Part shown: piece by piece, positions 13,435-37,435 of the stretch
Numbering within the stretch: the first letter of the stretch is position 1
Layout: every line of letters starts with the position of its first letter
DNA from: a virus
Taxonomy: Duplodnaviria; Caudoviricetes
IMG/VR virus record: IMGVR_UViG_3300021431_000126
Coordinates: 520-64,519 of that record
Reading direction: 5' to 3' (one strand)
DNA length: 64,000 nt
Made by a program: the position numbers and the translations under genes
Notes under the pieces: model-generated
Database searches by the model: none
What the model saw: the letters and a program-made list of their open reading frames with translations, nothing else
Told to the model about the DNA's origin: nothing

Positions 13435-14769
13435 ATGAGTTACGACATTAAAAAATTAAATGAAGTAAAATATTTCAAGCATAACCATATAATAATTCTA
13501 GCATACATGTGCCAATGGATTGCAGGAAAATATCAACCACTTCATCAAGAGTTTGATGGCAGAATGTATTATTGGTTTTCACTTCAGAAAATGGCTGAGG
13601 ATCTGTCCTTGTCATATCAACAGGTTCAACTTGCCTTGCGTAGATTAAAGAATCAAGATAAAAATGTTGATTATGTTACAGAGCCATTGGTGTATCAAAA
13701 AATTGATTATACTAATAATAGAATGTATCTTTCAGTTAATTTACCTGAGTTGAAAAATCTTATTGAATGCAAAAATGAATTGAAAGATTGCAGGATTAAA
13801 ATTGACACACTTCAGAAAAGAATTGGTGGAATGGGACTTTATACAAAGAGGATAGGAAAAATGGGAGCAGAAGCACTTTTTGATATTGAAAAACCTGCAT
13901 ATTGTGTTGAAGCAGACGCAATAGCAAAATTGATTTTGAGAAAATATCCTCAATATTTTTCTCATAGAATTCCTGATGAAAAATCATCTGCAACAAAAAC
14001 ATATGTTTCAATTTGTAGATCTATTGAGGATCTTTACAATGGCAGATTCATTCGTGAAAGAACTTTATGTGAAAACTTTTTGACTAATAAACAATTCAAT
14101 ATTGAGGGTTGGCAATCAAAAATTAAGGCTGTAAAGGGAGATTGGATCGCAGTCAAAAAATTGATTCTTGGTGCATTGAAGAATTTTGTTTTAATGCATG
14201 ATGAAGACAGAATGCCTTATAGTAAAGATTATTTACAGACCAATCTCAATCTTTGGTTTTATGATAATGTGTCGATTCAGGGTGAAGGTCAGTCACAATT
14301 TATTTTGTGCTTATTTGAGCCAGAATACACCAAAAAACACAATTCAGAAGTCAAGGCTGATAAAATCTTTGAAACACTTTCAAATACTGCTAAAAAGGGT
14401 GGAAATGAATTGTTTGAGATGAATACTTCAATGCCTGCTGGATTGTTTTGGGACAAGATAAAAGAAATGGTTGAATGGGGCAAGAGTGCTTTTGAGATTG
14501 AAGACAATATTCAATATTGGATTAGTAGTGCGAGTGAGTTGCCATCCAAGTTTGCAAGTTATTGCAGGGAAAATGACATCACTGTATCTCTAGCAACTGT
14601 TGATATAAAAAAGGCGGTAGAATCTAATGCCCCATGGACTTGGTTTGTAAAAGATGCCTGCATAAAACACGGATTGAATTCAAGCCTTGCAGAATGTGCA
14701 GATGAATCTGATATGATTGATTGTTATAAAAAATTAACATTTGATGATATGGAGTCAGTTGTTTTTTAA
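13435..14769 (+). CDS. Putative replication initiator (N-terminal wHTH)
   Basis: YYWFSLQKMAEDLSLSYQQVQLALRRL wHTH; first gene before MTase/DnaB; GAGGTG RBS before ATG 13435; AT-rich upstream region. Confidence 0.55.
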   Translation: MSYDIKKLNEVKYFKHNHIIILAYMCQWIAGKYQPLHQEFDGRMYYWFSLQKMAEDLSLSYQQVQLALRRLKNQDKNVDYVTEPLVYQKIDYTNNRMYLSVNLPELKNLIECKNELKDCRIKIDTLQKRIGGMGLYTKRIGKMGAEALFDIEKPAYCVEADAIAKLILRKYPQYFSHRIPDEKSSATKTYVSICRSIEDLYNGRFIRERTLCENFLTNKQFNIEGWQSKIKAVKGDWIAVKKLILGALKNFVLMHDEDRMPYSKDYLQTNLNLWFYDNVSIQGEGQSQFILCLFEPEYTKKHNSEVKADKIFETLSNTAKKGGNELFEMNTSMPAGLFWDKIKEMVEWGKSAFEIEDNIQYWISSASELPSKFASYCRENDITVSLATVDIKKAVESNAPWTWFVKDACIKHGLNSSLAECADESDMIDCYKKLTFDDMESVVF

Positions 14770-14779
14770 GAGGTTAAAA

Positions 14780-15489
14780 ATGATTAAATTATATAATCAG
14801 AATTGTAGGGAAATAATAAAAGATGTAAAACCTGAAAAATGTATTATTGTAACAGATCCGCCCTTTAATGTTGGTTATCATTATAATTCTTATAACGATA
14901 ATATGCCTGAAAAAGAATATTATGAAATGCTTGATGAAGTTTTACAAGGCAATTTTATAATCATTCATTATCCTGAAGAAATTTATAAATTTGCAATACA
15001 TAAAGGAATAGCACCACAAAAAGTTATATCTTGGGTGTATAATTCAAATACAGGAAAACAACACAGAGATATTGCATTTTTTAATATCAAACCTGATATG
15101 TCAAAAGTGCGACAGCCTTATAAAAATTTGACAGATAAAAGAATTATTGAAAGAATGAAATCAGATGTGGGGGGGCAAAACTTTATGATTGGTGGAACAT
15201 TAATCAAGTTAAAAATGTGAATAAAGAAAAAACAGAACATCCATGTCAAATGCCTCTTGAGGTAATGAAAAATATTATAGGCATTCTGCCTGAGGATTAT
15301 ACAATATTGGATCCATTTATGGGTAGTGGTACAACAGGTGTTGCCTGCAAATTATTGGGTAGGGATTTTATTGGAATTGAACTTGATAAAAAATATTTTA
15401 AGATTGCAGAACAAAGAATAAATAATGGATTTGTTCAAAAAGATGTTACTGATGAAAAATTAAGTTCATTGCCTTTATTCCTAGAATAA
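14780..15489 (+). pseudogene. Beta-class N4-C/N6-A DNA methyltransferase split by a frameshift at a G7 tract (15169-15175)
   Basis: VTDPPF in the 5' frame; AKLYDWWNINQVKN..HPCQMP..ILDPFMGSGTTG in the -1 frame. Confidence 0.85.
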
Positions 15490-31951: not shown

Positions 31952-32204
31952 AAAGGTAAATGAAATCAAAGGCTTGATCTCAAAGTGTGAAATTGAATCC
32001 GCAAAATCTCAGGGAATTATTGAAAACATTAAGAAACAGTGGAAAGCCGATTATGGAACTGATGATGAAAAAGAGATTGAAGAAAAGTTGCAGGAAATGA
32101 ATTCAGAACTCAAAAAGAGCAATGAACGGCTTGAAACAATTTACAACAAATTGGTTGGTTCATATGATTGGGAACAACTTGAAGAGGAAATGGGGGCAGA
32201 ATAA
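31941..32204 (+). CDS. Short coiled-coil protein (possible middle piece of split Rad50)
   Basis: Heptad pattern; lies between the two SbcC halves. Confidence 0.5.
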   Translation: MNIEKVNEIKGLISKCEIESAKSQGIIENIKKQWKADYGTDDEKEIEEKLQEMNSELKKSNERLETIYNKLVGSYDWEQLEEEMGAE

Positions 32205-34271: not shown

Positions 34272-34943
34272 ATGGAACAATTAAGAGTAATTGAAATGGC
34301 AATAAAACCACCTTTTGACTTCTTTGTCACGATTCAAGGCAAAACAAACATTTATTATGAAACAAAATCTCTTTCAAAAGCCAAGCGAGTGGGTGAAGAA
34401 TTATTATTGGAAAAAGGTGAGCATTCATTTATCCATTCTGTATATTTTAGTGATGATGAAAATAGGCAAGGTTGGCTCAGCAAAAGGATTCTCAGAATTG
34501 AAGATGATTGTTCTTGGTCAAAAGATTTTTCTAATTTTGTAATACATCCTGCTTTTTTATGGAATTATGATGTCAGAAAATGGAATCCAAAAATTTATGA
34601 TAAAATAAGAACTGCATATGCTTGTAATAAATTAAAGTATGAAGATTCGTGGGAATTTACAAAAAATTATCTCAAATTGGATGAATTGAATAAAGAAGTT
34701 GAAAATAAATTATTTAAGGAAAAAGTTAAAAAATGTTGCAAAAAGGTTGAAAATAAGTTATCTGAATTTATTTCTGCAAATGATGAACTTACTGCACTGG
34801 TACAAAGTAAATATCCAAATGTAAGAGCCGAGTATGCCATATTTGATAGAATGATTATATTTTATCTTAATGACAGAATTAATGGTGATAAAGAATTCTA
34901 TTCATTTGATGAACTTGAAAAATATATGAATGAGGTAAAATAA
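34272..34943 (+). CDS. Hypothetical protein
   Basis: 223-aa ORF after a terminator. Confidence 0.7.
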   Translation: MEQLRVIEMAIKPPFDFFVTIQGKTNIYYETKSLSKAKRVGEELLLEKGEHSFIHSVYFSDDENRQGWLSKRILRIEDDCSWSKDFSNFVIHPAFLWNYDVRKWNPKIYDKIRTAYACNKLKYEDSWEFTKNYLKLDELNKEVENKLFKEKVKKCCKKVENKLSEFISANDELTALVQSKYPNVRAEYAIFDRMIIFYLNDRINGDKEFYSFDELEKYMNEVK

Positions 34944-34944
34944 A

Positions 34945-35848
34945 ATGAATTTTGAGAAAATGTTCAAAGATTATCACATTGAGTATTCTACCAAAGTGAA
35001 TAGGGGGTGGGTTTAACGTTGAGTGTCCTTATTGTACATCTGAACATCCAATGCATTTGGGGTTTAATCCTGCGGGTGGTTATTGTACTTGTTGGAATTG
35101 CGGTGGCCATGACTTGAAACGCACCTTGTCAAAGGTTTTGGCTGTTCCTTATAATGATGTAGATGAAATTATGACCCATTATGAGGGCAGAGGTGGAATG
35201 CTGATGCAACTCAATAAAAAGGTTGCCAAAGCAAAACATCTTGAACTTCCAAATGATGGATTCATACCTGCTGAAAGAAAATATCTTTTGGGCAGAAACT
35301 TCTCACCAAGATTCCTGCACGAAAAATATGGAGTGGTTGGCGGTGGAATTGCGGGCAGATGGAAGTTCAGAATTCTCATTCCAGTGTACTTAAATGGAAA
35401 ATTGGTGAGTTGGACAGGCAGAAGTATTTTGGACAAGCAGACCTTAAAAGAAAAGGAAATTCCAAGATACAAAAACCTGTCTATTGAAGAATCTGTCATA
35501 AATATTAAAGAGTGTATTTTCAATATAGACCATTGCAGGAAAAATGTTGCGGTGCTTGTAGAGGGTTCATTTGATGTTATGAGATTGGGTGACGATTTTA
35601 TGTGTAGCATGGGTACAGAACTGACTCAGAATCAAATTGGCATTCTTCATCAGCGGTTCAAAAAGATCTTTATTGCTTTTGATAATGAGCCTGAAGCACA
35701 GAAAAAAGCACGCAAATTTGGACTGCAACTTGCCTCAATTGGAGTTGAGGTTGAAGTTGTAAATATTTATGAAGATTTTAACAAAAATGATGGGGGTGAA
35801 TTATCTGATAATGAAGTGAAGATTATTCGCAAAGAACTTGGGTTGTAG
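34945..35848 (+). CDS. DnaG-like primase (Zn finger + TOPRIM) needing a +1 frameshift at 35011-35017
   Basis: Frame 0: MNFEKMFKDYHIEYSTKVNRGWV-stop; +1 frame: NVECPYC..H..CWNCG...VEGSFDV...AFDNE. Confidence 0.8.
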
Positions 35849-35898: not shown

Positions 35899-36183
35899 AT
35901 GGATGATTTTGATGAATTATTTATGGAAATGCAGGGTGAGGAAAAGCCTGAAGAATTTCCAAATTTGCCTGCTGAGTTGCAGGGAAAAGATCTGACACCA
36001 GATGAGACAGAAAAGTTGAAAAATGACTTTCCAACTTTGCGTGATTATATCACAATCTCATTCAATCGTGAGCAGACAAAAGAACTTGCAGAACTGTTGG
36101 GTGTTCCAATGCTTGATCCAAAGAAAAAGAACACATATACATTTGATGAATTGAAAGGAATGAAGACATATGGATTATTATAG
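35899..36183 (+). CDS. Acidic hypothetical protein, first gene of the modification cluster
   Basis: Follows an AATCCTATAATAAA promoter; overlaps the radical SAM start. Confidence 0.65.
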   Translation: MDDFDELFMEMQGEEKPEEFPNLPAELQGKDLTPDETEKLKNDFPTLRDYITISFNREQTKELAELLGVPMLDPKKKNTYTFDELKGMKTYGLL

Positions 36184-37435
36184 TTCACCAAGATGGACTG
36201 CTGAAATTGCAGATTGTTCCATGCCAATGACAATGGATACATATTCAAATTGTTCTTATAAATGTCAGTATTGTTTCAGTCAGTTCCAGCGTGGAATTGG
36301 AGATGGAAAAGACGCTTATTTGGCAAATGAGGTCAAATGGGTAAATCCTGAGAAGTTCAAAAAGATCTTCACTGAGCCTGACAAGAGTCAGTTTGGTCAG
36401 TATGTAAAAGCACGCAAGGCAATGCAGTGGGGTGGACTTTCTGACCAGTTCGATGAGAATGAAAGAAAATATGGAAAAACACTTGAGTTGTTACGTTGGA
36501 TGAGAAAAAACGTGCCTGACATGCCAATTTCATTTTCAACTAAAGCAACTTGGTGGCTTGATGACCCTAGATATGTAGAGTTGTTCAAGGACAATCCGCT
36601 GTGGAATTGTAAATTTTCAATTATCACTTTGGATGAAGAAAAGGCAAGAATCATTGAGGCTGGAGTTGATTCACCAAAGAAAAGACTTGAAGCAATCGAG
36701 AAGTATGCCAAGTTGAATGCAGGCGGTGCGACATTAAGATTGCGACCGTTCATTATTGGAATTACTACACCAACATACCTTGATTTGATCCGTGAAGCAG
36801 GAAATAGAGGTGCGACAGCATTGAGCACAGAATTCTTCTGCGTTGAAAGACGTTCAAATTTGTTGAAAGAAAAATTCCACTTTTTCAATGAACTCTGCGG
36901 ATTTGATTTGTATAAGTTCTATGAAAAATATTCAGTTCAGCAGGGTTATATGCGACTGAACAGAAAAATTAAAGAGCCATTTGTCAAGAATATGAAAGAG
37001 GAATGTGAAAAAATTGGTATGAGATTCTATGTCTCAGACGCACATTTCAAAGAATGTTCCTGCAACGGCTCATGCTGTGGATTGCCTGAAACTTGGAATT
37101 ATTCAAGAGGGCAGTGGTGTCAGGCTTTAATGTTAGCAAAGAAAAATGGCAAAGTAACTTATTCAGAAGTCAAGGGTGACATTGATAAGTATTTGTCAGG
37201 ATTCCAGCGACAAAGGGCAGAGGGATTCAACAAGGGTGGAGCAAGCACAAGGGCAAAGTTCAGCGGTATGTCTATGGCTGACTATATGCGTTGGTTGTGG
37301 AATAATCCAAACAATGGACAATCACCTTATACTCTTTTTGAGGGTGTCTTGTATCCTGTGGGCAATGATGCAAATGGCGACTTGATATATGAATATCAGG
37401 AAAACAGAACATTTGTGCCGATTGAAAATAAATAG
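36170..37435 (+). CDS. Radical SAM protein (spore-photoproduct-lyase-like fold) with extra C-terminal Cys cluster
   Basis: CSYKCQYC (CxxxCxxC), STK, LRLRPFI, CSCNGSCCG. Confidence 0.88.
   Translation: MDYYSSPRWTAEIADCSMPMTMDTYSNCSYKCQYCFSQFQRGIGDGKDAYLANEVKWVNPEKFKKIFTEPDKSQFGQYVKARKAMQWGGLSDQFDENERKYGKTLELLRWMRKNVPDMPISFSTKATWWLDDPRYVELFKDNPLWNCKFSIITLDEEKARIIEAGVDSPKKRLEAIEKYAKLNAGGATLRLRPFIIGITTPTYLDLIREAGNRGATALSTEFFCVERRSNLLKEKFHFFNELCGFDLYKFYEKYSVQQGYMRLNRKIKEPFVKNMKEECEKIGMRFYVSDAHFKECSCNGSCCGLPETWNYSRGQWCQALMLAKKNGKVTYSEVKGDIDKYLSGFQRQRAEGFNKGGASTRAKFSGMSMADYMRWLWNNPNNGQSPYTLFEGVLYPVGNDANGDLIYEYQENRTFVPIENK

Follow-up and report, generated by a model that had tools for sequence, protein, structure and literature searches.

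The primase of the 64.5-kb phage described here is probably made by a forward ribosomal frameshift that is kept by selection and driven by an internal Shine-Dalgarno (SD) sequence together with a stop codon, as the comparison of its gene with those of its relatives suggests. The window analysed, a stretch of 64,000 nucleotides, covers almost all of a virus record of 64,519 bp that is rated 99% complete. On its plus strand, an ATG at 34945-34947, with a GAGGT SD 8 nt upstream (34932-34936), opens ORF1 (34945-35016), whose 23 sense codons (MNFEKMFKDYHIEYSTKVNRGWV; primase residues 1-23) end in AGG GGG TGG GTT and are followed by TAA at 35014-35016 and C at 35017. The +1 frame of the same strand is open from 35000 to a stop at 35846-35848, and from 35015 it reads NVECPYCTSEHPMHLGFNPAGGYCTCWNCG..., a zinc ribbon and then a Toprim primase. 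ORF2 (35015-35848) supplies primase residues 24-300, from AAC (Asn24) to that stop. A preliminary description of the locus had placed the ATG at 34945 and read 23 codons ending AGG GGG TGG GTT TAA C at 35002-35017, and both the coordinates and the reading are correct. It had also assigned the missing first half of the primase zinc finger to the +1 frame, where NVECPYC...CTCWNC is indeed found.

At the proposed shift site, also on the plus strand, AGGGGG (35002-35007) is an internal SD-like run and the candidate 5' stimulator. TGG (35008-35010), the codon of the invariant Trp22, forms the 3-nt spacer between this run and the shift codon; GTT (35011-35013, Val23) is the proposed P-site shift codon, with T 35014 as the skipped base; and TAA with the following C (35014-35017), which lies early in the gene at codon 24 and directly 3' of the shift codon, is the proposed A-site stop during the shift. 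A ribosome would start at ATG 34945, read 23 codons and come to stand with tRNA-Val on GUU in the P site and UAA C in the A site, while the anti-SD end of its 16S rRNA would be paired to AGGGGG 3 nt upstream. Slow termination and the strained rRNA-mRNA helix could then let the mRNA advance by one base, and AAC would enter the A site, resulting in a 300-residue DnaG-type primase (...NRGWV-NVECPYC...). Ribosomes that terminate would release a 23-residue peptide, which is probably useless. We infer that the ribosome, rather than another process, restores the frame, and the same applies to the efficiency of the shift and to any regulatory use of it, such as setting the primase dose or coupling it to termination capacity.

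The identity of the product is supported by matches of ORF2 to phrog_47 (PHROG 47, 'DNA primase', E 1e-31) and to Pfam Toprim_2 (E 2e-7, above the curated cut-off), and by matches of the DnaG primases 2au3, 5guj and 4e2k in the PDB to the homologue P0001. A blastn search of the locus against GenBank phages gave no match. Both features of a DnaG-like Toprim primase are present, the N-terminal CxxC...CxxC zinc ribbon (35024-35101, plus strand; CPYC at 35024-35035 and CTCWNC at 35084-35101) and the Toprim catalytic domain (35552-35782, plus strand; the Toprim_2 match, residues 185-261 of the translation starting at 35000). The four cysteines C27, C30, C49 and C52 are invariant in homologues. In the short N-terminal piece, the ORF1 residues N2, F3, K5, F7, D9, Y10, Y14, N19 and W22 are invariant in full-length homologues, and in the AlphaFold model of P0001 the residues of the 23-codon piece have pLDDT values of 81-89 and belong to the zinc-binding domain (this model is confident for residues 1-80 only, with a mean pLDDT of 59.7). 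The zinc ribbon is whole only when ORF1 and ORF2 are joined, or when translation of ORF2 begins before 35024.

A search of 5.8 billion proteins gave 435 relatives, and the best 120 clusters at 90% identity were examined for the break. Most relatives have 299-304 residues, are uninterrupted and read RGWVN at the site. The closest of them (P0001, 96% identical and uninterrupted) reads ...STKINRGWVNVECPYC..., which is exactly the junction produced by a +1 shift at GTT-T; the junction peptide RGWVNVECPYC, predicted in the preliminary description, is therefore exactly as encoded by uninterrupted homologues. The same description had regarded a family in which every homologue is uninterrupted as speaking against a frameshift. 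Instead, 11 of the best 120 clusters consist of proteins of 263-284 residues that start at or just after the site, and their DNA is broken after the same Val codon. A 263-aa cluster (P0008) was also suspected of being interrupted; its gene turned out to be uninterrupted, with a start wrongly called too late.

When the DNA was compared, 32 distinct contexts were obtained, 20 of them uninterrupted and 12 interrupted, the latter divided equally between a +1 form and a +2 form (six each). All 12 interrupted contexts have TAA or TGA directly 3' of the Val codon. The +1 form reads AGG GGG TGG GTT TAA C in L087, the same as in the window, and CGG GGG TGG GTT TAA C in L061-64, L099 and L109; all six distinct +1 alleles have GTT followed by T, and TAA followed by C. 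The +2 form reads AGG GGG TGG GTG TAA A in L001-3, L125-128, L004-6, L013, L044/46 and L124, AGG GGG TGG GTG TGA A in L086 and AGA GGT TGG GTG TAA A in L085, the L001 type having been found in seven or more samples. Moving two bases forward from GUG in these two-base forms gives GUA or GUG, which also encode Val, with AAY (Asn) next, so a +2 shift restores exactly R-G-W-V-N. A scan of IMG/VR with the 15-mer GGGGGTGGGTTTAAC gave 32 matches, of which only two (L099 and L109) are in the primase, the others being chance matches in unrelated contexts.

Public gene calls cut the interrupted primases short (P0025, P0028, P0031-38, P0048, P0056, P0060 and P0079). These truncated entries begin at an ATG further into the gene, or at a GTG within the G-rich run, and lack the first 20-40 residues. 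Wrong primase starts of this kind, seen as entries of 263-284 aa, mean that such genes are mis-annotated in virome catalogues.

The preliminary description had raised the possibility of an assembly error, because a single extra T gives the same picture. Four sequencing runs were compared with the window over 34600-35400, all as contigs, in which minor population variants would go unseen. In Logan, the probable source sample is represented by a 7,113-nt contig of depth 18 that matches all of 34600-35400 without a difference or gap. A bovine metagenome from another study gave a contig of 151 nt that agrees at every base over 35001-35148, and a third study contributed one of 337 nt covering 34932-35100, gap-free and with six substitutions. 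The extra T is thus kept in assemblies from three studies. The fourth sample contains two coexisting strains, one interrupted (AGG, gap-free) and one uninterrupted, the latter lacking one base at 35012 and carrying A35002C and G35004T, so that CGT replaces AGG. As far as contigs can show, an assembly artefact is excluded. A phage population reading mostly GGGTTAAC in raw reads would contradict the frameshift reading, and the data compared here are contigs. Among sequencing runs recorded as RNA, none was found to hold this stretch of the window.

An extra homopolymer T from sequencing or assembly, or its RNA-level equivalent in which the frame is repaired by polymerase slippage, has in its favour that the site lies in short runs (G5, G3 and T3), as the preliminary description had pointed out. 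We give either version next to no credence. Besides the agreement of three assemblies from three studies, the break is seen in other lineages in many samples and with many assemblers, and the runs of 3-5 bases at the site fall far short of the tracts known for transcriptional slippage. Restoration of the frame within the window's G5 run, by dropping a G, was rejected, as it gives RGGFN and the invariant Trp22 is lost. The nearest uninterrupted allele (96% aa identity) reads CGT GGT TGG GTC AAC and differs from the window by four substitutions at the site besides the extra T, with all codon changes synonymous. These synonymous changes in the closest uninterrupted relative, along with the two-base version in sister lineages, are two points that go beyond the preliminary description.

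The interrupted alleles show that the gene on both sides of the break stays under purifying selection. Between them, the downstream ORF has a dN/dS of 0.05-0.18 at pS 0.23-0.72, and the 23-codon piece has few non-synonymous changes, a comparison in which the synonymous sites number only about 12. A gene with an early stop is normally inactivated, and the coexistence of an interrupted and an uninterrupted strain in one sample could be explained by a pseudogene, or by a defective phage helped by co-infecting relatives. However, a second lesion was not seen in any interrupted allele, the downstream frames of 275-281 codons are intact in all 12 contexts at the low dN/dS given above, the break is always at the same codon with a specific motif upstream, and the window comes from a record rated as 99% complete. 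An inactivated primase is therefore, in our judgement, very improbable.

The presence of the SD-like run follows that of the break. GGGGG is found 3 nt 5' of the Val codon in 11 of the 12 interrupted contexts and in none of the 20 uninterrupted ones (Fisher p = 9e-8, a descriptive value rather than a formal test, as the sequences are related and relatedness was left uncorrected). In the uninterrupted alleles the two codons are AGA GGA, AGA GGT, AAA GGC, CGT GGT and similar pairs. The one interrupted context without GGGGG (L085) carries AGAGGT, which includes GAGGT, the commonest SD of the window's genes; AGAGGT is also found in a few uninterrupted alleles (L008 and L023), which counts against the frameshift reading. 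The break is real and recurring, and it travels with the SD-like run. The likeness to prfB noted in the preliminary description (an SD-like run, a 3-nt spacer, a stop and a C after the stop) was borne out by the comparison, in that these elements occur together only in interrupted alleles.

The motif on its own carries little weight. AGGGGG occurs once in the 64-kb window, and the loose pattern GGGGG-N6-TRA has one match there, compared with 1.5 expected by chance; it is therefore not significant alone, and its weight comes from the comparison with relatives. The codons that form it are not the usual ones: in the window's genes GGG makes up 5.8% of Gly codons, and AGG and CGG make up 15.8% and 2.8% of Arg codons, respectively, and none of the 34 other in-frame Arg-Gly pairs forms GGGGG. 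The stop context is also unusual, with TAA followed by C in 1 of 40 TAA-terminated long ORFs of the window, C being a weak termination context. At 7-10 nt before the start codon, most of the window's long ORFs carry GGAGG, GAGGT or something close to these, indicating that the host uses SD sequences. GGGGG itself is found at SD distance before two other ORFs (504-508 before the ORF starting at 515, and 32192-32196 before the ORF starting at 32204), and the phage appears to use it as a ribosome-binding site at true gene starts.

The distance from an internal SD to the shift codon is 3 nt for SD-stimulated +1 shifts and 9-14 nt for -1 shifts (PMC5009743), and the 3-nt spacing of AGGGGG-TGG-GTT fits the published rule for +1. 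A 3' stimulatory RNA structure was not seen, as 80-nt folds around six alleles were no more stable than shuffled sequences (z-scores 0.0 to 0.75). A frameshift-suppressor tRNA or a tRNA-Val encoded by the phage was considered and rejected, the window having only a tRNA-Gln and no unusual tRNA.

An SD-like run upstream of a new frame could also serve initiation. The locus could yield two products, the 23-residue peptide and a primase started downstream by re-initiation or internal initiation, with AGGGGG as the ribosome-binding site of the second. AGGGGG makes a good SD, phage operons often employ termination-reinitiation, and gene callers start the +2 alleles at the GTG inside the G-rich run, giving MGVN.... 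This GTG, however, overlaps the SD-like run and leaves no spacer. In the window, the frame of ORF2 has no ATG, GTG or TTG before ATG 35051, which comes after the first Cys pair, and the +1 alleles likewise lack such a codon from the opening of the frame to that pair; independent initiation would therefore give only half a zinc ribbon. In addition, the conserved N-x-x-C-P/V-Y/F-C has been retained in the stretch from the stop to the first ATG, and the 23-residue piece keeps the invariant residues of the family. Separate initiation is accordingly a quite improbable source of the primase, and a frameshift that joins the two pieces remains the preferred reading.

Within frameshifting, other routes were rejected. 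In the two-base alleles, a -1 slip on the G5 run gives RGVGVN, without the invariant Trp22, and could not take place in L085 for want of a G run. As L085 has neither the G run nor a -1 slippery site and yet keeps GUG UAA A, the +2 route is favoured for the two-base forms. A forward step of the mRNA by one base or two, from the same state of the ribosome (tRNA-Val in the P site, a stop in the A site and the anti-SD paired 3 nt upstream), would be the most economical mechanism to cover both forms. Translational bypassing of the T4 gene 60 type was rejected because the old and the new codons overlap (the shift being of 1 or 2 nt) and there is no coding gap; overlapping take-off and landing codons indicate frameshifting. 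In the sister lineages with GUG UAA A or GUG UGA A, the tRNA-Val would re-pair perfectly at the GUA or GUG two bases on, and the protein would come out the same. We know of no natural +2 ribosomal frameshift in a bacterial or phage system.

The +1 form is less favourable for re-pairing, since GUU_U keeps two of three pairs after the shift, with a mismatch at the first position, whereas GUG_UA and GUG_UG re-pair fully at +2. Of 32 shift codons compared in the RF2 setting, CUU_U outperformed all others by a wide margin (PMC5009743). The GUU to UUU mismatch counts against the frameshift reading, and so does the stop codon, because UAA usually terminates efficiently and is recognised by RF1 as well as RF2. 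With both factors reading it, there would be no feedback loop of the RF2 type. Primase synthesis may be gated by release-factor activity or by the state of the ribosome, as the preliminary description had proposed from the layout of the site.

Each of the three interrupted forms can be made by a tandem duplication of T, GT or TG (GTT to GTTT, GTA to GTGTA, GTG to GTGTG). Such a duplication creates overlapping Val codons automatically, so the potential for re-pairing is not independent evidence of design. The evidence of selection lies rather in the SD-like run, the C after TAA and the persistence of the site over deep synonymous divergence. This raises the possibility that the break is a tolerated indel, in which duplications of 1-2 nt hit the same codon repeatedly, incidental low-level slipping compensates for them and an SD-like run later raised the yield, with no regulatory purpose. 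The decoding step would be the same as in our preferred reading, and only the status as 'programmed' would differ. All three forms can be derived by duplicating T, GT or TG in uninterrupted GTT AAC, GTA AAC and GTG AAT, the L085 allele looks young and relies on the ordinary AGAGGT, and about 90% of the best 120 clusters do without the break.

A merely tolerated defect should, however, often revert by the loss of one base, and there are no GGGGG-bearing revertants among the 20 uninterrupted contexts. The cassette is also unchanged in interrupted alleles across synonymous divergence of 0.5-0.7, the rare codons AGG or CGG and GGG are fixed in 11 of the 12 interrupted contexts, and the minor Asn codon AAC is retained in each of the six +1 alleles, with the weak stop context TAA C as the result. 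For these reasons we consider a tolerated indel unlikely, and return to a frameshift that selection has kept.

The nearest known system is prfB, for which SD-plus-stop +1 frameshifting is treated as essentially a one-gene phenomenon. In a 2024 survey, all CUU-stop cases in RECODE are prfB (PMC10885494). The E. coli prfB site reads AGGGGG-UAU-CUU-UGA-C near codon 26, and the primase site reads AGGGGG-UGG-GUU-UAA-C. Both have a short zero-frame ORF (23 codons in the primase and 25 in prfB), AGGGGG separated from the shift codon by exactly 3 nt, a shift codon of the form NUU with U after it, and a slow in-frame A-site stop followed by C. Neither shows a 3' RNA structure, and in both the signal is absent from members that do not need the shift (PMC5009743). 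In contrast to prfB, where the stop is the RF2-specific UGA, the primase has UAA, read by RF1 and RF2, and thus no self-sensing loop. The shift codon is GUU instead of CUU, and the gene is that of a phage primase rather than a release factor. The signal is found in about 9% of the members of the primase family compared with about 87% of prfB genes, and the sister alleles of the primase use a two-base version. By analogy, the primase cassette would work like that of prfB, outside the prfB autoregulatory system.

Forward shifts of both sizes have engineered precedents, as Weiss et al. in 1987 reportedly obtained +1 and +2 shifts in E. coli with synthetic 'shifty stop' or forward-hop constructs. 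These resemble the primase sites in having a +1 or +2 forward shift beside a stop, help from a nearby SD-like sequence and a peptidyl-tRNA that re-pairs on an overlapping cognate codon. They were engineered, in contrast to the GUG-UAA-A and GUG-UGA-A sites of the primase, which are natural and kept in several phage lineages. Obligatory natural +1 and +2 frameshifting at stop codons is described for Euplotes (PMC12275403). The likeness is in forward shifts of +1 and +2 at a sense codon and a stop in ordinary protein-coding genes, and the difference is in a eukaryotic, genome-wide process with no SD stimulator, another shift codon and a tie to the altered termination of Euplotes. The -1, +1 and -2 shifts of tail assembly chaperones and the SD-stimulated -1 shift of dnaX are similar in concerning phage or replication genes and, for dnaX, in the internal SD; they differ in giving two useful products at a set ratio and, for dnaX, in having the SD 9-14 nt upstream (PMC5009743). 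In the primase, unlike in these genes, reading on in the zero frame yields a 23-residue stub, and no enzyme would be made without the shift. The word 'primase' is absent from the text of this frameshifting review (PMC5009743). A literature search of limited coverage, frameshift surveys included, gave neither a frameshifted phage primase nor a prfB-like site in a phage.

The distribution of the break within the family points to exchange between lineages. Interrupted alleles are dispersed over a 34-row protein tree, whose well-supported branches require no fewer than five changes of state. The history of the first 69 nt differs from that of the rest of the gene: the window and L047 differ by pS 0.73 upstream of the break and 0.22 downstream, and L061 and L063 by 0.08 upstream and 0.58 downstream. 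The gene just 5' of the primase differs as well, being a 223-aa ORF without a family match in the window (34272-34943) and a 112-aa ORF in its closest relative, L047 (1161-1499). Taken with the greater divergence of the first 69 nt, this indicates a recombination boundary inside the 5' end of the primase gene, and the cassette probably travels with the 5' segment by recombination. The scatter in the tree may therefore come from exchange of the 5' segment rather than from repeated origin, and the 12 contexts may represent fewer independent events than is apparent.

A broader account can be put forward tentatively, and we rate it at slightly below an even chance. According to this, the family would have natural SD-driven cassettes maintained by selection in a +1 version (GUU UAA C) and a +2 version (GUG UAA A or GUG UGA A, shifting to GUA or GUG), both with the SD 3 nt upstream. 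The +2 version would be the first natural one known in bacteria or phages, the cassette would be passed between lineages together with the gene's 5' end, and the start of phage replication would be tied to the termination capacity or the ribosome state of the host. If true, the use of prfB mechanics, with UAA and a Val codon, by a gene of phage replication would make the cassette a portable module, open to evolutionary assembly in other places. The occurrence of +1 and +2 alleles at a single codon would offer a natural mutant series for how a short-spacing rRNA-mRNA helix sets the direction and size of a shift. Should efficiency depend on the availability of release factors, this could be a new way for a phage to tie its replication to host physiology.

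With regard to the host, the sequencing runs that hold the window are ruminant gut metagenomes. The primase family is also found (L088 and L089) on contigs binned into a Treponema sp. MAG (70% identity) and into the rumen Spirochaetaceae MAG RUG14257 (99% identical to part of P0001). The host may thus be a rumen Treponema, a suggestion that is based on the binning of phage contigs and is weak. The genes adjoining the primase vary among relatives, with a NUMOD3-containing, homing-endonuclease-like ORF in L085 (1-265) and QueC with a Vut_1 transporter-like gene in L001 and L125 (1-1241). The latter pair may be a sign of 7-deazaguanine metabolism in part of the group. In place of either arrangement, a radical-SAM gene is found in the window at 36170-37435.

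A second split gene was noticed elsewhere in the window, where a beta-class N4/N6 DNA methyltransferase (14741-15489, plus strand) is divided into two ORFs, one with a DPPF motif (14741..15220) and one with HPCQMP and DPFMGSGTT (15217..15489). The two frames meet at a run of seven Gs (15169-15175); the -1 frame from 15172 reads the expected GAKLYDWWN...HPCQMP, and a run of eight Gs would be in frame. Candidate causes of this split are phase variation of the tract, a -1 slip on G_GGG_GGG and an error in the homopolymer.
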